Source of the DNA: a virus
Length of the DNA: 64,000 nt
Strand: one strand, 5' to 3'
IMG/VR virus record: IMGVR_UViG_3300032249_000480
Span: 1-64,000 of that record
Positions 417 through 14,123 of the stretch are shown here, piece by piece. The translations under genes were made by a program, and so were the position numbers. Each line of letters begins with the position of its first letter. Position 1 is the first letter of the stretch. The notes beneath the pieces are model-generated. The model was not told where the DNA came from and made no database searches. It saw only the letters and a program-made list of their open reading frames with translations.

Positions 417-470
417 TTATCCACAAGTTTATACCCTTAAAAATGTAAGTTATCCACAGGTTTATCCACA
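417..470 (+). promoter_or_regulatory. three perfect DnaA boxes
   Basis: TTATCCACA at 417-425, 450-458 and 462-470. Confidence 0.8.
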
Positions 471-2966: not shown

Positions 2967-3111
2967 TTAATACCTCCAAGTAGTGTTTGGATACATGAAT
3001 GGCTCCTTCTAGGTAAGGAACAATGCTATCAGCACCGTCCTCGTTTTCCAAATCCTGTTCAAGGGATATGGCGTGTAGTCTGATATATTCTCTAAATGTG
3101 TCTAGGTCCAT
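2959..3111 (-). CDS. hypothetical protein (50 aa, leaderless, not in track)
   Basis: MDLDTFREYIRLHAISLEQD...; TTGTCA-17-TATAAT ends 6 nt before the ATG. Confidence 0.6.
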   Translation of the reverse strand: MDLDTFREYIRLHAISLEQDLENEDGADSIVPYLEGAIHVSKHYLEVLND

Positions 3112-3114
3112 ATA

Positions 3115-3351
3115 TTAATTATAAGGGTTGGTGTTGATTTTGACAACTTTTGGGGGTGTGACCTTAATCACAGGCTCATAGAACCTGCTTTCAATATCTT
3201 CCACACTGACATATTGCATTTCTCTACCACAAGGGCAGGTCATGCTAACTATACCATTAGGAAAACCATACCCATCCCTGGCGGTAAATTCAAGAAGAGA
3301 ATCACATTCAAATGGATCACAGACAAATGTATACTTAGCCCAGTTCTGCAT
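3115..3351 (-). CDS. hypothetical Cys-containing protein
   Basis: ORF with AGGGAG RBS; CDPFEC and CPCG. Confidence 0.6.
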   Translation of the reverse strand: MQNWAKYTFVCDPFECDSLLEFTARDGYGFPNGIVSMTCPCGREMQYVSVEDIESRFYEPVIKVTPPKVVKINTNPYN

Positions 3352-3663: not shown

Positions 3664-3779
3664 AGATTAATTTTAGCAGTTCAGCAAAAAAAAGTCAATC
3701 TACGTAATAAGGTTTGGGGAAAAATCTAATGTGATCTTAATCACAAAAACCGAGAAATGTCAAACCCGAGAAATTTTTG

Positions 3780-3853
3780 CGAAGTGTACGGGACTTGAAC
3801 CCGTGATCTCTACCGTGACAGGGTAGCGCATTAACCAACTATGCTAACACTCC
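3780..3853 (-). tRNA. tRNA-Asp(GTC)
   Basis: GGAGTGT/ACACTTC acceptor stem, CTACC-CTGTCAC-GGTAG anticodon arm, GGTTCAAGTCC T arm; CCA not encoded. Confidence 0.95.
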
Positions 3854-3892: not shown

Positions 3893-4909
3893 CTATGCTA
3901 GTTGCATAACATTTTGTACAACTTTTAGCAGACGATTCTTTTCTGCGTTAATAGCAGGGTCAAATCCACTAGCACTTGCAAGGATAGATTCGTTAGAACC
4001 ACCGCGAGCAGAACGATACCAGTCAAGGCGCTCAGTTAGTGCATTGAAAGCACCCCACGCATTACCAGCAATCATGCCATTGAATTCACCAGTGTAAATG
4101 TCGTTAATAACATCTACCTTGTTTTCCCATTTCTTGAATGAGCCTTTTGCATCTGCATCAGGCTTTGGGTATGCTGCAAGAATAATGTCGTTAAACATTT
4201 TAGCATCAACAGTCTTTTCAATCATTGCCTTAGCCATGATATCAAATTCGTCCATGTACTTATTAGCCATGCCAAGAGTTTCACGTGCAATTTGCACTTT
4301 ACCATTGGCAGTTTGTGTGTGACGAATCTTGAAAGATTGCTTGACGCCATCTTTTTTCTTAGTACGATTTAACGCAAGGTTAAGAGTATTAGCGCACACA
4401 ACACGAACAGGTGTGATGCTTGCTTGAATTGCGATTGAGCCATCGTGTGATGTGTTAATGAGAAGATAAGTTTTAACCTTATCTGCTACACCATTTGGGT
4501 CTAGTACAGTTTCACGCTCTAGTGCTAATGCACCAAATACAACGCGACCACCCTTGATTGAGCCAGCGGTTTCCCAACGTCCACCACCATCTAGTATGTT
4601 ATCACCAAATGAGAATAAATCTTCATTCTGTAAAACATGGTAACGCTCACCAACAACACCCAAAACATCTGTTTGTGTATTTGTTGTAGGATTTGTGCGA
4701 ACAACGTATTGGTATTCCTTGTCGCTTGTTAAGTGTGATGGGATAGGCATGTCTTCAAGACGAACATTCCAACCATTTAGATTTGCTGCTGCGAGCATTT
4801 CTGATGTTGATTTTTCTTCTGTGAAAACAGTACCCAATCCATGCCATGCGGGTTCACGGAATGATGCAAAAGATGCAACGCCGTTTTGAGTTTCTAGGTC
4901 ATGTGCCAT
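3893..4909 (-). CDS. DUF932 / TIGR03299 family phage-plasmid protein
   Basis: MAHDLE, PAWHGLG, ETAGSIKGGRVVF, SHDGS, TPVRVVCANTL and RHT motifs. Confidence 0.9.
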   Translation of the reverse strand: MAHDLETQNGVASFASFREPAWHGLGTVFTEEKSTSEMLAAANLNGWNVRLEDMPIPSHLTSDKEYQYVVRTNPTTNTQTDVLGVVGERYHVLQNEDLFSFGDNILDGGGRWETAGSIKGGRVVFGALALERETVLDPNGVADKVKTYLLINTSHDGSIAIQASITPVRVVCANTLNLALNRTKKKDGVKQSFKIRHTQTANGKVQIARETLGMANKYMDEFDIMAKAMIEKTVDAKMFNDIILAAYPKPDADAKGSFKKWENKVDVINDIYTGEFNGMIAGNAWGAFNALTERLDWYRSARGGSNESILASASGFDPAINAEKNRLLKVVQNVMQLA

Positions 4910-5067
4910 GAGTTATTTCCTTTTCTGTTGTTGTTATTTTAAGTATAACAGTATGGGCTGACAAATGCAAATCAGTATAGTTAAACATAGGACATTTCGG
5001 ACATTTTTTAAAGGGCTCTTAATGTGATGTTGATCACGTGGGCCCGAGATTTTTAAAATAAAAAAGT

Positions 5068-5097
5068 GAGCCGTTTACATGGACACTGCTCAGGTCC
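5068..5097 (-). ncRNA. pseudoknot element, copy 2
   Basis: GGAC-CUGAGCA-GU-GUCC-AUGU-AAACGGCUC. Confidence 0.6.
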
Positions 5098-5114
5098 CTT
5101 TTAGTAGCCCCCTA

Positions 5115-5555
5115 CTAAATATCTATTCTGTCAATTGAACATGACACATATGAAATAGAATCTGAATCATAGTCAATAGTATCAAAGTCAACATTATTAA
5201 CTATATCATTTGCGTCTTCTTCATTACGTGCATTAACAGTCATTGAGTAAGTTACAGAAACTTCAACCTCAAATTCTTTTGTTAAATCAAAACCACAAAG
5301 ATTAGCAATTTCTTCTGCTTGTGATTCTGTTATTTGGCCATTCTCTAGTTCATCAAGCGTCCATTCTTGCATTGCAATACGGATGTTACCAATCTCTGCA
5401 GCATTATGCATATCACGTTGTGATACACGTGCAGAGTGCTCTTCTAATTGCTTGATACGTGCTAGGTTTTCAACAAGAGACTTCTCTAAGAATTCTCTAG
5501 TCATGTAATGATTATCAATTGGCATATCTGATATTGTTGTATGTACTTGGTCCAT
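5115..5555 (-). CDS. hypothetical protein with coiled coil and acidic C-terminal domain
   Basis: ORF with GAGG RBS downstream of a TGTCAG promoter. Confidence 0.7.
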   Translation of the reverse strand: MDQVHTTISDMPIDNHYMTREFLEKSLVENLARIKQLEEHSARVSQRDMHNAAEIGNIRIAMQEWTLDELENGQITESQAEEIANLCGFDLTKEFEVEVSVTYSMTVNARNEEDANDIVNNVDFDTIDYDSDSISYVSCSIDRIDI

Positions 5556-5682
5556 GGGGGCCTCTTCCTGTTAGTTGTTATTAATATAAGTCTAGCATGG
5601 GGCACTGACAAATGCAACTTAATCTTAAAGCATCTTAACCCGTAATGGGTGATCTTGGTCACATTTTCTCGGACCCCAAAAT

Positions 5683-5709
5683 GAGCCTTTTTAAATCTTG
5701 CTCAGGATT
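5683..5709 (-). ncRNA. pseudoknot element, copy 3
   Basis: AAUC-CUGAGCA-A-GAUU-UAA-AAAGGCUC. Confidence 0.6.
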
Positions 5710-5757
5710 GCTCTATAGTATTTCTATAATCGCCCTAATCAGCCTGGCGAATTTTAT

Positions 5758-5928
5758 TTATTTAGTTGTCTTTACCATTGCGAAACGCTTTGAGCCATTC
5801 GCTAGTGTTAAGCCAACACGAGTTACTGTATTGTTAATTGGAGCGAATGAGTTAATTCGTCCAGTTACGCCAGCAGTTGATGTTGTGAATAAATCACCTA
5901 ATTGGTATGTGTATCCTTGTAGAGTCAT
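5758..5928 (-). CDS. small SH3/KOW-like protein (56 aa, not in track)
   Basis: YQLGDLFTTSTAGVTGRI, similar to 6563..6730; AAGGA RBS. Confidence 0.65.
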   Translation of the reverse strand: MTLQGYTYQLGDLFTTSTAGVTGRINSFAPINNTVTRVGLTLANGSKRFAMVKTTK

Positions 5929-5960
5929 TTTGTTTTCCTTTTCTTTGATGGTGGTTTGGT

Positions 5961-5989
5961 GAGCAGTTTAGCATGACTTACTCAGGTCA
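5961..5989 (-). ncRNA. pseudoknot element, copy 4
   Basis: UGAC-CUGAGUA-A-GUCA-UGCU-AAACUGCUC. Confidence 0.6.
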
Positions 5990-6001
5990 GTATTTAGTTG
6001 T

Positions 6002-6424
6002 TTATAGATAACGGGCTACTGCGTTGTAGGTAGAAGTATTAACTACTTCCTCGTCCGTCATTTTGAGAATACGGATAGCATTAGAGATTTCCTCTTTCTG
6101 CTCGTTGTATGTGTGTTGATGTAAAGAAGTGTATCCACGCTCAGGTTCAGCAGGGAACTCACCTTCTTTAACTGTTAAATCAAAATCAACATTGAGTGTC
6201 TTGTTCCATGAGCGATAGTTAGTGCGTAGGTTTTCTGCCTTAGCAATTCTATCTACGGCAAACTTAACAAGTTCTTTACGCCATGCTTCCATAGCCTTCT
6301 CATACTTTGCTTCGTTTGCTTCTTGTGAAGTCCAGTCAAGTTCTAGTTTGTTTAGTGTTTGTTCTAGTGCCTTGATTACTCGCTCAGTAGGTATCTTTAC
6401 TGAGATTGCTTTTCCTCTTGCCAT
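6002..6424 (-). CDS. hypothetical helical phage protein
   Basis: ORF with AAGGA RBS and TGTCAG promoter. Confidence 0.75.
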   Translation of the reverse strand: MARGKAISVKIPTERVIKALEQTLNKLELDWTSQEANEAKYEKAMEAWRKELVKFAVDRIAKAENLRTNYRSWNKTLNVDFDLTVKEGEFPAEPERGYTSLHQHTYNEQKEEISNAIRILKMTDEEVVNTSTYNAVARYL

Positions 6425-6562
6425 TTGTTTGTTTTCCTTTTCTTTGATGGGTTATTTATAGTATAGGGGGTGGGTCTGACATTTTCCCCATAAGGGGGGA
6501 GAGTTCTTACTTACGACATTGGGCTAGATACTCTCCTAAACTGCCCCTGTTTCGTTATTTAA

Positions 6563-6730
6563 TTAGGACTTAGGTGTCCAAGTTGTGTAACGGGTTGTGC
6601 CATTAACATCTAACTTAACGCGAACATTTCCATTTGCCTGTGGCGTAATTTCCTGAATTGTTCCTGTTACCTTTGACTTTTGTGATGTGTAGGTATCTCC
6701 TACTTTGTAAGTTGCTGTTGCGACTGACAT
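6563..6730 (-). CDS. small SH3/KOW-like protein (start MSVATA)
   Basis: YKVGDTYTSQKSKVTGTI; AAGGA RBS. Confidence 0.7.
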   Translation of the reverse strand: MSVATATYKVGDTYTSQKSKVTGTIQEITPQANGNVRVKLDVNGTTRYTTWTPKS

Positions 6731-6931
6731 GATTTCCTTCTTTCTGTTATTCAGGGACTTTCCCTTATGTATTAAGTGTAACATTTCCTACTGACATTTA
6801 CAACATTTATCCCTAGATTTCTCACTATTTGAGACGCTCAGGGGGTGTGATTTATGTCACTCATGTCCAGACCCCATGAATAGGAGCATGGCTATTAGTA
6901 GTGCTAGTATAGTTAGAGATAGCATTTATCC

Positions 6932-7654
6932 TCATTTCTTGCTTGATGAGAAAATTATGTCGCTCTTTGAGTATACACACAATTGGCAAGAAACGCAAGC
7001 GGAGCCCTTAGTTGAGATGAGAGGTATCTGCTTATTATTCTCAGGACACTTTGCGCTAGGCTTACCAATCATTTCTTTTATGTCTGCCTGTCCAATTGAG
7101 AATGACTTAGCAAGGTATGCCATGCGAACGCCACTGTTGATTTTTAGATCTACGGCAGTCTTAACATTCTCACTATCTGCAGAAAAATAAAGACTTAAAT
7201 TAGCAATGTCTTTTAGTATTAGTGCGGCAGACTTAACTCTTGTGTATACCCAGAATTGAATGTCTGTATTATTAGTGATTACTGTCTTCCATGCGTTAGC
7301 ATAGTTATCGCTAAAGAAGTCTCCGTCCCAGTGGATACGGAATAGTAATTGTGCATTTTTCTTTTCGCAATCTTTTCTAAAGTCATTTATCATTTCTGAT
7401 AGCAATGCTTCCATGGTATCTTGATTAGCGTCCTTTAGTAATTCCCAATTGTGCATTAGGTTTACTTTAACACCCTTGAATAGTTTTTCTAACTTTCCTG
7501 CATAGCATACACTTTCGCATACGGATGTGGCTCCAGGGCATGAGAATGCTTTTCCTGCGGGAAGTCCAAAAGTATTAGCAATTGTTGCAGTCTTACCATT
7601 AGGGGATACGGCATTAGTTACTTTTCTATCTTTGCTTCTTAGTAGTTTTGTCAT
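6932..7654 (-). CDS. GP88-like Fe-S (radical-SAM-like) phage protein
   Basis: FGLPAG, CPGATSVCESVCYA, FRIHWDGDF, WVYTR and C-terminal CPE..CxxCxxC; start revised to 7654 because 7680-7701 is its promoter. Confidence 0.8.
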   Translation of the reverse strand: MTKLLRSKDRKVTNAVSPNGKTATIANTFGLPAGKAFSCPGATSVCESVCYAGKLEKLFKGVKVNLMHNWELLKDANQDTMEALLSEMINDFRKDCEKKNAQLLFRIHWDGDFFSDNYANAWKTVITNNTDIQFWVYTRVKSAALILKDIANLSLYFSADSENVKTAVDLKINSGVRMAYLAKSFSIGQADIKEMIGKPSAKCPENNKQIPLISTKGSACVSCQLCVYSKSDIIFSSSKK

Positions 7655-7659
7655 GGTGG

Positions 7660-7806
7660 CTACTCTCTTTCTTTCTTCAATTGTAACATTAGGGACTGAC
7701 ATTTCTTTCTGTCATATTTCTTTTTATTGGGTATTGCAGAGGCAGCATTAGATCTACGTAATTCCATAAGGATACGTAAAGATTCAGGGGTCTTTTTTTG
7801 TCTCAT
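7660..7806 (-). CDS. small basic protein (48 aa, leaderless, not in track)
   Basis: MRQKKTPESLRILMELRRSNAASAIPNKKKYDRKK...; TTGACA-17-TAAGAT ends 6 nt before the ATG. Confidence 0.65.
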   Translation of the reverse strand: MRQKKTPESLRILMELRRSNAASAIPNKKKYDRKKCQSLMLQLKKERE

Positions 7807-7854
7807 GTAATAATCTTAGCAGTTCAGGAGAAAAATGTCAAACTACGTAAAGTC

Positions 7855-7875
7855 TGTGGATAAGCCTGTGGATAA
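7855..7875 (-). promoter_or_regulatory. tandem DnaA boxes
   Basis: TGTGGATAA at 7855 and 7867 (also single copies at 9203, 11353 and 11395). Confidence 0.75.
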
Positions 7876-7888
7876 CGTCCCGAGATTT

Positions 7889-8110
7889 TTATTCAGCAAA
7901 GACAAACAGATCAACAGAATCTTCAAAATTTAATTCTGCAATGTCTTGTTCACCAAAATCATTAACGTGTTTTATAAAATAGTTATCGCCTGTGCCATCT
8001 TGTTCAATAGAAACAATGGTAACGACCTCACCATCAATTGCAATGAGATCGTCCTCCATTAATTCTGAAACTTTAAATTTGCCTGCATTTAGCAATTCCA
8101 TAAGTTTCAT
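7889..8110 (-). CDS. small beta-barrel-like hypothetical protein
   Basis: ORF track; true start may be ATG 8101 (leaderless). Confidence 0.65.
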   Translation of the reverse strand: MKLMELLNAGKFKVSELMEDDLIAIDGEVVTIVSIEQDGTGDNYFIKHVNDFGEQDIAELNFEDSVDLFVFAE

Positions 8111-8122
8111 TGTAACATCCTT

Positions 8123-8215
8123 TTATTGATTTTCAATTTCATCTAGTATCTGCCATAGGACGGTTTCCAAAGCAGGTGTTGCTTCATCTAATAACTCTTG
8201 GAGTGTTTTGCTCAT
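8123..8215 (-). CDS. 30-aa hypothetical peptide (not in track)
   Basis: MSKTLQELLDEATPALETVLWQILDEIENQ; ATGA-coupled. Confidence 0.45.
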   Translation of the reverse strand: MSKTLQELLDEATPALETVLWQILDEIENQ

Positions 8216-8565
8216 TCTAATCCCAATCCTAACTCAAAGCCTTCATCCTCATTCATGGATACAATGCAATCGCTGCAATCGCAATCCCAAACATGGGGCA
8301 ACCAAAAGTCTAAGTGGTGTTGGTCAACAATAGCACTAGCAGGTGCGTGAGTCATTCCTTTATAAAGAATCTGAAAGTCACCAACCATAGGCATTTCAAT
8401 CATGCGGTTATAGTCCTCATCATAGAAAGCGTCAATAGCCTCAATGCAAGGCTTGACCATTTCTGCTGGTATTGGTGGATAGTGATTACCCTTTAAGTGA
8501 TAAAGTAATTGTGTTTCTAAATCCAAAACTGAATCTTGGATACCTAGTGCTGTTACTGCTCCCAT
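8212..8565 (-). CDS. hypothetical phage protein
   Basis: HLKGNHYPP motif; translational coupling. Confidence 0.7.
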   Translation of the reverse strand: MGAVTALGIQDSVLDLETQLLYHLKGNHYPPIPAEMVKPCIEAIDAFYDEDYNRMIEMPMVGDFQILYKGMTHAPASAIVDQHHLDFWLPHVWDCDCSDCIVSMNEDEGFELGLGLE

Positions 8566-8780
8566 TATTTTGTTACGACCTTTCGTCCTTGGCGGTAGAA
8601 TACCTTAGTGTGCATTTTGCCACTAGGTTCAGATAGATTAACTGTAGCATATTCATCAGCAAATCCCCAATCTATATGAGTATTAAATTCATTAACTGCC
8701 GTTAATGCATCTGAGTAGCGACCTGTCCAATGAGGTGCGTTGCCATCATAGGCAACTGTTATAGCGTAGTTATATTCCAT
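8565..8780 (-). CDS. hypothetical protein
   Basis: AAGGAG RBS; TAATG coupling. Confidence 0.7.
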   Translation of the reverse strand: MEYNYAITVAYDGNAPHWTGRYSDALTAVNEFNTHIDWGFADEYATVNLSEPSGKMHTKVFYRQGRKVVTK

Positions 8781-8965
8781 TATGCGTTCTCCTTAGTTTT
8801 GAATAAGTGGTGATATTCTTGTATTTCATCAGCAGGGATATTGTAAGTATTACACTCACACGCCCATAAATCATAGTCTACATCATTTCCTGCAAATTGC
8901 CAACCATTACCATAGCAGTAGTGGCAGGTTAAAATACCAAGAATAGAATCTTTGAATTTTCCCAT
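8780..8965 (-). CDS. small Cys-rich protein
   Basis: CxxCxGxG...CEC; similar to 9669..9788. Confidence 0.65.
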   Translation of the reverse strand: MGKFKDSILGILTCHYCYGNGWQFAGNDVDYDLWACECNTYNIPADEIQEYHHLFKTKENA

Positions 8966-9093
8966 TAGTAATACCAATCCTCTCCAAGAGCCTTTTCAGC
9001 GCACCAATCAGTATAGTGCTTATCGCACATAGTTTCAACACTAGCGTCTATCGTGTTTATATTATTTTTTGTAGCGTAACAGATATTACACAT
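8965..9093 (-). CDS. small Cys/His protein (42 aa, not in track)
   Basis: MCNICYA...MCDKHYTDW; AAGGA RBS. Confidence 0.55.
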   Translation of the reverse strand: MCNICYATKNNINTIDASVETMCDKHYTDWCAEKALGEDWYY

Positions 9094-9247
9094 AAGTTTT
9101 CCTTTCTTAGAATAATCTAAGCCTATCAGATTAGACTGACACTTTCAAGTTACAAACACCATTTCAGGGGTATTCTGGGTGTGTTTTTAATCACATCTTA
9201 ACTGTGGATAACTTGTGGACGACACGCCGAGATCTCGGGAAAAATTT

Positions 9248-9274
9248 GAGCAGTTTATATTCTTGCTCAGGAAT
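9248..9274 (-). ncRNA. pseudoknot element, copy 5
   Basis: AUUC-CUGAGCA-A-GAAU-AU-AAACUGCUC. Confidence 0.65.
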
Positions 9275-9283
9275 TTATTTTAA

Positions 9284-9457
9284 TTAATCTGTTTTAGTAC
9301 AAGCGTCCCAAAATTTATTTTCATCAAACCTTGGATTGTCTGAACTAAACCATTCACTAAATTCAAAAACTAAATCTTGAAAAACATGTGAGTCAATTCC
9401 ATCTACAAATTGATTTAAAATTTTTGCGGTTTCAACATAGTCTTTGCGAGTCATCAT
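9284..9457 (-). CDS. small phage protein (MTRKDY...DNPRFD...F..AC type)
   Basis: Recognisable small phage-protein motif; TAATG-coupled. Confidence 0.7.
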   Translation of the reverse strand: MMTRKDYVETAKILNQFVDGIDSHVFQDLVFEFSEWFSSDNPRFDENKFWDACTKTD

Positions 9458-9669
9458 TAGTTTTTGCCAACTTTCAAAACAGCCCATTGATTATTTTCGT
9501 TAAGTTTATTTAAAAAGCCTTCTTCTTCAAGAGCAGAAAGAAAAGCCCCACGAAGCATTTGCTCCATTTGTTCCTCAGATAAACTAAGAAAAATATTTAG
9601 CAAGTTAGCAGGCATTTTGAATTCGTCAATTTCAGTGACAAGGTTTACAGTGTGGTTTAGTGTTATCAT
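9457..9669 (-). CDS. hypothetical protein
   Basis: ORF with GAGGAG RBS. Confidence 0.65.
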   Translation of the reverse strand: MITLNHTVNLVTEIDEFKMPANLLNIFLSLSEEQMEQMLRGAFLSALEEEGFLNKLNENNQWAVLKVGKN

Positions 9670-9788
9670 TAGTTATTCTCCTCTACACAAGCACAAGGTT
9701 CAACATGGTAGTCTTGGTCATTACCAAAAAAGATGTAGCCTTGACCAAAACAGTCATTACAAGGAACAGTCATTACTGAGTTTATCAT
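9669..9788 (-). CDS. small Cys-rich protein (39 aa, not in track)
   Basis: CNDCFGQG...CAC; coupled on both sides. Confidence 0.55.
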   Translation of the reverse strand: MINSVMTVPCNDCFGQGYIFFGNDQDYHVEPCACVEENN

Positions 9789-9976
9789 TACTTCACCAAT
9801 GCCTTTCCGCGTAGTGTTCCGCTAATACCTAAAGAGTCGCAAGCAACCTTTACAGAAATACCAACAGGCAATTTCTCAGGGTATGTGGAGATGAATTGAG
9901 CAACTGCTCCCTTACTAGGGAGAGCGATGTTTTTAACCTCACCGCTAAAGGTTTCTAGTTTCATAGTATAAGTCAT
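9788..9976 (-). CDS. hypothetical protein
   Basis: AAGGAAG RBS; TGTCAG promoter. Confidence 0.7.
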   Translation of the reverse strand: MTYTMKLETFSGEVKNIALPSKGAVAQFISTYPEKLPVGISVKVACDSLGISGTLRGKALVK

Positions 9977-10068
9977 TTTGACTTCCTTTCGTTTTGTTTA
10001 TAATCCTAGCCTACCATAGGCTACTGACATTTTTTGTATTTCTAGGGGGTGTGGCGATGTGAGTTACC

Positions 10069-10191
10069 TCACAAAGCCCCCTCTTGGAATAACCCTAACT
10101 CTAAGGTTAAGAGTTCATCAGGTGTGGCTTCTGATAGGTCAACCCAACCAGCACCTTTTTCATCTAGGCGAAAAATCTCAATGTATCCCAT
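10069..10191 (-). CDS. 40-aa hypothetical protein (not in track)
   Basis: MGYIEIFRLDEKGAGWVDL... Confidence 0.5.
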   Translation of the reverse strand: MGYIEIFRLDEKGAGWVDLSEATPDELLTLELGLFQEGAL

Positions 10192-10194
10192 TAG

Positions 10195-10392
10195 TTATTC
10201 ACCTACCTTTACGGCAACAGTTCGCCATTTGTTGCGGTAGATAGAATTAACCTCAACCAAATAACTTTCTGTATTATCTCCATACCATACGGCACGATTA
10301 TCTTTTTCAGCAGATACAATCTCTCCTGTTAAAGTTTTTGAGCGATAGACTTTACCAATTAGCAAGTCTTCTATTTTGTATAAGTTAGCCAT
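10195..10392 (-). CDS. small SH3-like protein
   Basis: IGKVYRSKTLTGEIVSAE; AAGGAAG RBS; TTGTAA-17-TAAACT promoter. Confidence 0.7.
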   Translation of the reverse strand: MANLYKIEDLLIGKVYRSKTLTGEIVSAEKDNRAVWYGDNTESYLVEVNSIYRNKWRTVAVKVGE

Positions 10393-10605
10393 TATTAGCC
10401 ACTTCCTTTCTTTATTTTCTTACTATGTAAGTTTAACAGATTTAGGAGAGATTTACAACTTACTAGCCAGTAAATCCAAATAATGAGACGCTCAGCGATG
10501 TGATTTAGCCCACAAACTTTCTGTGATCTTAACCACATCGTACGTAAAGCGACACGCCGTCTGCGCCGAGAAAAATCGCAGAGTTTATTTCTACGATCTT
10601 AGTTT

Positions 10606-11226
10606 TTATTTATTTTTATTTATTAAAACAGAAATAAAAACGGCAGCAACAAGAATAAATGCTAACACATGATAAGGTGTGGCAAATAAATTTAGAATTA
10701 AGTTTTCCATTTTTATTTCTCCATTACTGATTTGATAATTTCTAATTGTTTAACAGTGAGAAGCGCAGAAGCACTACCCCAAAGTCCAACGTATGATAAC
10801 TGATTACCATATTTTTTATCTGCTAATTCTTTTATTTCTTTTAGCAAAGAATCTTGTTTATTAGTATTCATTATTCATCACACTCACAATCTTGGTATGG
10901 GTTAAAGTCGCAGAATTGGCAACCTTGTTTTTCAAAGTGATTATCGCAAAAGTAGCGATACTGTAATTCACCGCAACAGATGAAGCGTTCATTGTTAGTT
11001 AGATAGAAACTATTTGAGCCAATAGGCGTAAGAGTTAACATAGTCATTACTTAGACACCGCCCAACGTGTCCACATAGGTAGACGCTCAGGGTCAGTATC
11101 GTTATACCAACGCTCAATGTTATTTTCACACATTTCACAAAACGTGAATTGTGTATCGTTAAAGTCTGAGATAGCAGACTTATTAGGGACGTGTGATTTA
11201 CACACTTGGATAATTGTTGAATTCAT
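10606..11226 (-). CDS. four coupled micro-ORFs (11047..11226, 10871..11047, 10713..10871, 10606..10710)
   Basis: 59, 58, 52 and 34 aa; TAATG coupling; the first follows the 11277-11298 promoter; two are Cys-rich and the last is hydrophobic. Confidence 0.55.
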
Positions 11227-11440
11227 TTGAATTCCTTTCTAGTTCAGAAACCTTTTCTGACTTTCTTTATACTAGAAGTATAACAGGTACCACTGACATT
11301 TACTGGACAGTAACTAGGACAAAACGGACATTTGGGATTGTGATGTACGTCATGTGGATAACTTGAGCGTAAATTCGTAGTGTGATGTGTATCATGTGGA
11401 TAACTTTTTGGCCCGAGAAAATGTGGGCTATATCACATGC

Positions 11441-11487
11441 GACACGCCGTGTTTAGACTTGACTTTTGGGGGGTAGTGTGATAGGAT
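11441..11487 (+). promoter_or_regulatory. rightward promoter 1 with GACACGCCG (WhiA-like) site
   Basis: GACAC starts 18 nt before TTGACT-17-TAGGAT. Confidence 0.7.
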
Positions 11488-11591: not shown

Positions 11592-11638
11592 GACACGCCG
11601 TAGCAAGGCTTGACTTTTTGACATTTCTATGGTAGTAT
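11592..11638 (+). promoter_or_regulatory. rightward promoter 2 with GACACGCCG site
   Basis: GACAC starts 18 nt before TTGACT-17-TAGTAT; same geometry as promoter 1. Confidence 0.7.
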
Positions 11639-11752: not shown

Positions 11753-11935
11753 ATGAACACTATAACTAAAGACTTAGTAGCAGAGTATGGCTCTAGCATA
11801 CTATCTAAGAATAACCCTTACCCAAAGGGTACGCTCTCACTAAGAGAGTGCCAAATCCTACTAAACAAGTATGGAGTAGAAAAGGCTACGCTAATTGTTA
11901 AGCGTCATGCCTCACTAAGAAAGGTAAGTAACTAA
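11753..11935 (+). CDS. hypothetical early protein
   Basis: ORF with GAAAGG RBS. Confidence 0.65.
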   Translation: MNTITKDLVAEYGSSILSKNNPYPKGTLSLRECQILLNKYGVEKATLIVKRHASLRKVSN

Positions 11936-11937
11936 AT

Positions 11938-12105
11938 ATGAAAATCAAATACTCACTATGGCAAGGCTCACGCCTACTAAGCATTAACAATATCGCTAGT
12001 GACATCAAGTCTATAGATGTCCTAGTCGCATCATTAAACGATAGCGAATTAGGTAAAAAAATTAAATTCGCTGCCAATGTTATGGAAATAGATACTAACG
12101 CATAG
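11938..12105 (+). CDS. hypothetical protein (55 aa, not in track)
   Basis: MKIKYSLWQGSRLLS...; GAAAGG RBS. Confidence 0.6.
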   Translation: MKIKYSLWQGSRLLSINNIASDIKSIDVLVASLNDSELGKKIKFAANVMEIDTNA

Positions 12106-12125
12106 GATATATATAACAGATCAAG

Positions 12126-12159
12126 TAGTGAGTGCTATTGTGTGCTCACTATTTTTTTT
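12126..12159 (+). terminator. intrinsic terminator
   Basis: TAGTGAGTGC/GTGCTCACTA stem followed by T8. Confidence 0.75.
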
Positions 12160-12259
12160 GTATTTATTTTTTATTTTTATGTATCATACACAAATACAAA
12201 AAATTCAGATTTTCTTGAAAATAAAAAAATATTCAGAAAATCCACGGTATACTAAATAC

Positions 12260-12592
12260 ATGGAAATCAGACCTTGGGGATACTACAAGATCCTACATAC
12301 AGACAATAACTGTCAGACAAAATTTTTGTCGGTAAATCCAGAAAGTCGTTTATCATATCAATCTCATATGTATAGAGCAGAGCATTGGTTCATAGTATCT
12401 GGAACTGCATTGGTAACAATTGAAGATGAAAAATATATTTTATATCCAGGCGATTCAATTGATATTCCACAATGCACTAAACATCGCATAGAAGCATTAC
12501 ATCAACCAGTAGAGTTTGTAGAAGTACAGACAGGTACATATTTTGGGGAAGATGATATTATTAGATTTGAGGATGATTATGACAGAAAGTGA
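12260..12592 (+). CDS. cupin, mannose-6-phosphate isomerase type II C-terminal-like
   Basis: RPWG, RLSYQSH..RAEHW, EVQTGTYFGEDDIIRFEDDY; leaderless start at 12260. Confidence 0.85.
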   Translation: MEIRPWGYYKILHTDNNCQTKFLSVNPESRLSYQSHMYRAEHWFIVSGTALVTIEDEKYILYPGDSIDIPQCTKHRIEALHQPVEFVEVQTGTYFGEDDIIRFEDDYDRK

Positions 12593-14103: not shown

Positions 14104-14123
14104 TTATCCACAAGTTATCCACA
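14104..14123 (+). promoter_or_regulatory. tandem DnaA boxes
   Basis: TTATCCACA at 14104 and 14115. Confidence 0.75.

Follow-up and report, generated by a model that had tools for sequence, protein, structure and literature searches.

Eight TGTCAG promoters in a lake-water phage share the layout of actinobacterial PafBC promoters

Which regulator reads the eight TGTCAG promoters that precede a block of small genes in the virus record IMGVR_UViG_3300032249_000480, and does it belong to the host or to the phage? The stretch analyzed here (the window) is the first 64 kb of this 104,786-bp IMG/VR record, which has 123-bp direct terminal repeats. A preliminary description, made from the sequence alone, had noted eight early promoters resembling the DNA-damage promoter of mycobacteria that is read by the activator PafBC (the RecA-NDp motif), and had proposed that the phage employs the single-stranded DNA (ssDNA) and damage sensor of the host to drive its own genes. 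Matches to TGTCAG-N10-TAnnnT were indeed found at the eight positions named there (4942, 5589, 6460, 6775, 7680, 9120, 10008 and 11277), all of them on the minus strand and within 4942–11298, whereas shuffled sequences are expected to contain 0.81 sites (standard deviation 0.86, maximum 3) and none of 100 shuffles gave eight. Over the whole 104,786-bp genome the motif matched eight times in reverse and not once in the forward direction, and a control in which the motif was read backwards gave no match on either strand.

The architecture of these sites was also largely as described. The spacer was 10 nucleotides (nt) long at all eight, six of them read TGTCAGT, and each was located just upstream of a gene start, with 25–50 nt between the end of the -10 hexamer and the start codon and with a ribosome-binding site of AAGGA type in every case. 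An extended -10 (TGn), a point overlooked previously, was present at seven of the eight sites. A TTG-type hexamer (TTGCAT twice, TTGTAA and TTGAAA) was found exactly 17 nt before the -10 at four sites and at the other four there was none; thus, the earlier count of four holds, but calling these hexamers normal -35 boxes was generous, as they agree with TTGACA at 3–5 of 6 positions. Recent duplication of one promoter was ruled out as the origin of the set by the near-background identity of the flanks (0.31–0.35 in pairwise comparisons versus a background of 0.27). The block behind the eight promoters comprises about 22 small genes, most of which have no family. The promoters and their genes, in amino acids (aa) where a length is given, are as follows (window positions).

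11277..11298, minus strand: promoter P1 (first of the leftward block), TGTCAG-N10-TATACT with TGn
11047-11226 (59 aa, first), then 10871-11047 and 10713-10871, minus strand: genes behind P1
10008..10029, minus strand: promoter P2, TGTCAG-N10-TAGGCT with TGn; genes 9788-9976, 9457-9669 and 9284-9487
9120..9141, minus strand: promoter P3, TGTCAG-N10-TAGGCT with TGn and with TTGAAA 17 nt before the -10
8965-9093 down to 7889-8110, minus strand: six small genes behind P3
7680..7701, minus strand: promoter P4, TGTCAG-N10-TACAAT with TGn; GP88-family gene from 6932 to ~7654 (PF17338, 3.4e-54)
6775..6796, minus strand: promoter P5, TGTCAG-N10-TACACT with TGn and with TTGTAA at -35; small gene 6563-6731
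6460..6481, minus strand: promoter P6, TGTCAG-N10-TATACT, the sole site of the eight without TGn
6002-6424 (140 aa) and 5758-5928, minus strand: genes behind P6
5589..5610, minus strand: promoter P7, TGTCAG-N10-TAGACT with TGn and with TTGCAT at -35; gene 5115-5555 (146 aa)
4942..4963, minus strand: promoter P8, TGTCAG-N10-TATACT with TGn and with TTGCAT at -35
3893-4909, minus strand: DUF932 gene behind P8 (PF06067, 2e-47)

Chromatin immunoprecipitation sequencing in Mycobacterium smegmatis had given the PafBC consensus tGTCgg(N10)tA(N3)T, which is 22 nt long and lacks a -35 box, and whose 5' part at -23 to -28 is known as the -26 element (PMC8635444). Residues R46 and R50 of PafB read the GTC triplet, which is almost invariant across actinobacteria, and PafBC itself is positioned between the DNA and region 4 of sigma A, a mode of activation named sigma adaptation (PMC8635444). 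PafBC is constitutively present and is activated by ssDNA, and the RecA-NDp motif extends beyond mycobacteria. The phage sites share with these promoters (recA P1-type) the 22-nt frame, TGTCRG-N10-TAnnnT, and the location of the element at -28 to -23; the GTC is invariant at all eight sites. A -35 box is absent at four of them, while the other four have the TTG-type hexamers given above. The match to the PafBC promoter motif is therefore real and the layout exact. On the other hand, the phage sites precede small genes of unknown function and not DNA-repair genes, and they differ in having A at position 5, TGn, a CCC run after the element and a context of 36% guanine plus cytosine (GC). We consider it somewhat better than an even chance (a probability of about 0.55) that the eight sites are PafBC-dependent promoters which work via sigma adaptation.

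The motif was also examined in relatives of this phage. At ~90% identity, IMG/VR contains 332 relatives of the DUF932 protein encoded behind P8 (4942), and the counts for the phage family were drawn from 80 contigs (1.35 Mb) among these. TGTC[AG]G-N10-TAnnnT occurred 613 times on the gene strand versus 74 times on the other. Five complete relatives (105–116 kb) contained 8–11 sites each, located within one ~10-kb block, and several complete relatives had one extra site on the opposite strand where transcription diverges; in the group as a whole, the number per genome ranged from 8 to ~30. A logo of 387 distinct sites was conserved only at aWW-TGTCAG-t-CCC, TG and TAnAAT, with a variable spacer and with weak TTGAAA at -35, and position 5 of the element was A in 96%. 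The orthologous DUF932 promoter was retained in 61 distinct relatives, in which TGTCAG and the -10 were kept while the spacer drifted.

The same contigs were used to examine the register of the two elements. At spacer 10 there were 271 distinct sites and at most other spacers no more than 38; spacer 16, with 101 distinct sites, is explained by a further TA...T that is often present after the -10. When the search was anchored on TGnTAnnnT alone, TGTCAG was the top hexamer at -28 to -23 (220 versus 22 for the next one). A different assignment, in which TGTCA would be the -35 and the -10 would lie six bases further on (a generic scan gave TTGTCA-17-TAAAAT at two sites), was considered and ruled out. 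We placed the -10 at +16 to +21 because the TG at +13/+14 was not forced by the search and because spacer 10 was preferred over spacer 16 by 271 to 101.

To examine the motif on the host side, we scanned metagenomes for it and then, at a promoter-like distance, for the conserved GKGxxMRLG of the RecA N-terminus. This gave at least 120 matches, and 80 loci were kept; among the matches listed, nearly all of these were actinobacterial recA genes, mostly with 62–74% GC. One of them, L174, came from a lake, has 44% GC and the gene order pgsA-cinA-recA-recX-miaB, and carries TGTCAG-N10-TATCTT 32 nt before recA, with A at position 5 as in the phage element. Its RecA is labelled as belonging to an Actinobacteria metagenome-assembled genome (MAG) and is 92% identical to that of 'actinobacterium acAMD-5' and 85–87% identical to those of Nanopelagicales MAGs. 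Thus, recA genes of actinobacteria in metagenomes are preceded by this motif, and one of these genes is from a low-GC lake lineage. A second low-GC match (L141, 43% GC) had Bacteroidota-like neighbors, a SusD-like lipoprotein and MreB, and was treated as a chance match. Lake metagenome contigs aligned to the L174 recA promoter region matched conserved recA coding pieces only and left the promoter uncovered.

We then compared the phage sites with 72 distinct recA promoters from metagenomes at those bases which the search pattern had left free. At position +6 the recA set had T in.57, A in.31 and G in.03, and the phage set had T in.53, A in.31 and G in.01. Positions +7 and +8 were G or C in 85–88% of sites, despite the 36% GC of the phage, and were also G/C in the recA set. 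Upstream of the element, positions -3 and -2 were A-rich in both sets alike.

The likely host was approached through the phage genome. The phage, which has a GC content of ~36%, encodes a siphovirus gene set (a 2123-aa tape measure protein, portal, protease, capsid protein and collagen-like tail fibres) and a replication set that includes a DnaB-like helicase, a primase, the alpha subunit of DNA polymerase III (Pol III) and RecA. When the genome was examined for signs of a temperate lifestyle, neither a tyrosine integrase nor a large serine recombinase domain was detected. A six-frame scan detected a WhiB gene at genome positions 94664-94945 (49.6 bits), with the Cys pattern of the family and the GVWGG motif, and this gene is conserved across the phage group. 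According to the literature, whiB is exclusive to Actinobacteriota and is a marker of actinophages, and phages with whiB have been reported as active in Rotsee Lake. For the capsid protein, the nearest relatives are in Streptomyces phages (Stanwilliamsviridae, 46% identity). The GP88 domain encoded behind P4 was taken into account as well. Because of the WhiB gene and the capsid protein, we assign the host to the actinobacteria, that is, to the phylum that carries PafBC, and at this level the predicted host agrees with the proposal of a PafBC-driven promoter set.

Within the phylum, the mycobacterial setting implied by the preliminary description was not borne out. Mycobacterium was rejected as the host, given the 36% GC, the lake-water origin and the lack of any match to this phage in a megablast search of cultured phages. 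Sequencing runs with small shares of phage DNA were labelled lake-water or freshwater metagenomes, and the single run with nearly all of the phage DNA was labelled just 'metagenome'. The host is probably a low-GC lake lineage of actinobacteria. Searches with WhiB were of little help in this respect, as comparison with a protein atlas returned viral clusters only and gave no host clue, and the WhiB search returned phage-sized contigs only. Among cellular genomes, the sole match was to a 4-kb contig assigned to a 'Saccharibacteria' MAG. Of 61 genomes of this Saccharibacteria order, one had WhiB, and it was on this very contig; the contig is therefore a mis-binned phage fragment, and Saccharibacteria were rejected as hosts.

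The TGTCAG sites are not the only promoters of this phage. Ordinary promoters (TTGACA-17/18-TAnAnT) drive the replication and lysis modules at 69–96 kb and are present in a few other places, and for this reason we regard the TGTCAG motif as a distinct regulatory class. Two ordinary promoters lie to the right of the leftward block.

11459..11487, plus strand: ordinary promoter, TTGACT-17-TAGGAT with TGn
11610..11638, plus strand: second ordinary promoter, TTGACT-17-TAGTAT with TGn; precedes genes 11753-12592

Since the replication module has ordinary -35/-10 promoters, the 'early' timing given to the TGTCAG sites in the preliminary description is an assumption. According to the explanation that we prefer, the host housekeeping RNA polymerase (sigma A) would read the eight sites as promoters of the PafBC type, each with a normal and usually TGn-extended -10 and with TGTCAG at -28 to -23 standing in for a good -35. 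PafBC, always present in actinobacteria, would be activated by ssDNA, insert between sigma region 4 and the DNA and read the GTC of TGTCAG. The block of ~22 small genes, DUF932 and GP88 proteins included, would thereby be coupled to the ssDNA alarm of the host with no factor of the phage's own. The likely trigger would be ssDNA from phage injection, replication or recombination, or from host DNA damage. It is possible that unaided polymerase reads the replication genes first, that ssDNA then arises and activates PafBC, and that the TGTCAG block fires after that. The motif, its layout, its conservation in the family and the host phylum all fit the proposal that a host ssDNA and damage sensor drives these genes, and so does the finding, described below, that no WYL or sigma domain was detected in the phage; binding and activation by PafBC, as well as the time of firing, are what we infer from them.

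If PafBC were not the regulator, the most serious competitor would be a protein of the phage. It would have no recognizable family and would read TGTCAG on extended -10 promoters that are self-sufficient with sigma A, either as an activator comparable to T4 MotA/AsiA or as a repressor by which the block is switched off; possible proteins are a small Cys-rich protein (many are present), the phage WhiB and a small helix-turn-helix (HTH) protein. The TGn at seven of eight sites and the partial -35 at four of eight make basal activity plausible, most genes of the block are without family, and WhiB is conserved across the group. However, no match to WYL (PF13280) or to sigma-70 region 4 (PF04545) or region 2 (PF04542) was found in this phage genome, and neither PF13280 nor PF04542 gave a match above cut-off in 20 group records, 9 of them at least 90% complete, so that a check suggested in the preliminary description, for a WYL or sigma factor of the phage's own, came out in favor of a host factor. 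The sole HTH signal (18.6 bits, sub-threshold) came from a stand-alone 51-aa protein at genome positions 81124-81279, beyond the window. This protein was detected in all 8 records with a completeness of at least 90%, which speaks for it, but its similarity is to the DNA-binding N-terminal domain of phage HNH endonuclease/DNA-binding families, and a DUF3310-like gene and the terminase genes follow it directly; we regard it as a weak regulator candidate. Moreover, the very first leftward promoter already has the motif, as often does the diverging promoter pair in relatives, and conservation was lacking for the genes that follow the ordinary rightward promoters (of 80 loci, 1 had orf60, 14 had orf55 and none had the cupin gene). 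A phage regulator would also have had to converge on a host motif in its exact sequence, its position and its flanking preferences. Taken together, we find this alternative unlikely.

A host factor other than PafBC might also act at the -26 position, for example a PafBC paralogue or another WYL or sigma-adaptation regulator, and the block might then respond to something other than DNA damage. A further WYL activator, SiwR, likewise needs a -26 element, in its case one with a GGA triplet, and sigma adaptation has been suggested to be widespread in actinobacteria (PMC8635444). Yet GTC is the very triplet that is read by PafB R46/R50 and is conserved at recA across the phylum (PMC8635444), and the flanking preferences of the phage sites agree with those of recA promoters, which makes such a factor quite improbable. 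We assign a slightly smaller chance still to a decoy function, in which the sites (at least eight copies per genome, amplified by replication) would sequester PafBC and thereby weaken the DNA-repair response and damage-induced defence of the host, with transcription being secondary. Many copies per genome are present across the whole group, and a report cited in one paper holds that PafBC regulates or influences mycobacteriophage resistance. A decoy would not need to be in promoter register, whereas all sites are on the coding strand with a -10, a ribosome-binding site and a gene behind them; in addition, titration of PafBC is compatible with PafBC-dependent transcription and not opposed to it.

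Several observations weigh against PafBC dependence itself. The relatives are closely related, so the site counts do not represent independent events. No enrichment of the motif was found in five cultured actinophages (LukeCage, TunaTartare, L5, TM4 and Bxb1), which include the closest by capsid protein, and there is therefore no precedent in a tractable system; in these five, the idea that actinophages use the motif in general was not borne out. TGn was not seen in the recA promoters, and at +7 to +9 the preferred bases are CCC in the phage sites and G/GC in the recA set. With the extended -10 at seven of eight sites and the TTG-type -35 at four of eight, activity without an activator is possible, and the use of a -26 element by SiwR means that position alone is not diagnostic of PafBC.

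Our literature searches, which combined PafBC or RecA-NDp with phages, did not turn up any description of promoters like these, but three known systems can be compared with them. The middle promoters of T4 (MotA box at -30, with AsiA; sigma appropriation) are likewise read by the host sigma-70 polymerase with an element that replaces the -35, and this parallel to PafBC was drawn in the PafBC structure paper (PMC8635444). T4, however, supplies two proteins of its own, while in the present case no phage factor was recognizable and the motif is that of the host. The SiwR-dependent dinS promoter of M. smegmatis also uses a WYL activator via a -26 element, but there a GGA triplet lies within a 19-bp palindrome and a single operon is controlled. 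Sites of a host DNA-damage regulator are present at phage promoters in LexA-controlled phage genes as well, such as tum of coliphage 186 and rstA of CTX-phi. Those are repressor sites that time induction in temperate phages, whereas the sites described here appear to be of the activator type, number 8 to ~30 per genome and occur in a phage for which the search for an integrase was negative.

PafBC and sigma adaptation have so far been known only as a DNA-repair switch of the actinobacterial host. If the PafBC explanation is correct, a host alarm signal would double as a developmental timer of a phage. This would also explain the second promoter class in a large lytic phage with no recognizable sigma factor or activator, and studies of DNA recognition by PafBC could draw on hundreds of natural promoter variants from the relatives. 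As the hosts probably rank among the most abundant bacteria of fresh water, the ecological scale could be very large. More tentatively, and with the odds somewhat against it, a very abundant worldwide lineage of lake actinophages, lacking a transcription factor of its own for this block, might use PafBC through sigma adaptation as a self-timed switch for ~20–50 small genes, with its own injected or replicating DNA serving as the ssDNA signal and with the sites diverting PafBC from host repair and defence. In that event, it would be the first phage example of the capture of an activator-type DNA-damage regulator.

Some additional features were observed near the TGTCAG sites. Direct repeats of TGTCC occur on the minus strand at ~4990–5010 and 11300–11335, upstream of the promoters at 4963 and 11298, and at 11298 their spacing is roughly one helical turn. 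In relatives, TGTCC was found at 0.42 per 100 nt before a site versus a background of 0.076 per 100 nt, a large part of this excess coming from orthologous copies of one promoter. A tRNA-Asp (GTC) gene (window 3779-3853, minus strand) lies directly after the last gene behind a TGTCAG site.

The ordinary promoters had their own associated features. The sequence GACACGCCG occurs four times versus 0.01 expected (window 9221-9229, 10551-10559, 11441-11449 and 11592-11600), and two of these copies precede the two ordinary rightward promoters listed above, at ~10–20 nt from their -35 boxes. It contains GACAC, which we take to be the WhiA core motif. On the minus strand, ordinary -35/-10 promoters at 3118-3146 and 3670-3698 leave only 7 nt to the start codons at 3111 and 3663 and would give leaderless mRNAs, which are common in actinobacteria.

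A 175-aa protein (genome 87107-87634) has a weak match to a proteasome-subunit family (E 6.6e-4, below cut-off), which is curious as the likely hosts of the phage link PafBC to the Pup-proteasome locus. Finally, eleven perfect DnaA boxes (TTATCCACA) were detected versus 1.04 expected by chance, at window 417-470, 7855-7875, 9203-9211, 11353-11403, 14104-14123 and 63895. They are mostly paired, intergenic and within the same small-gene region, which suggests that DnaA is titrated or used as a regulator.

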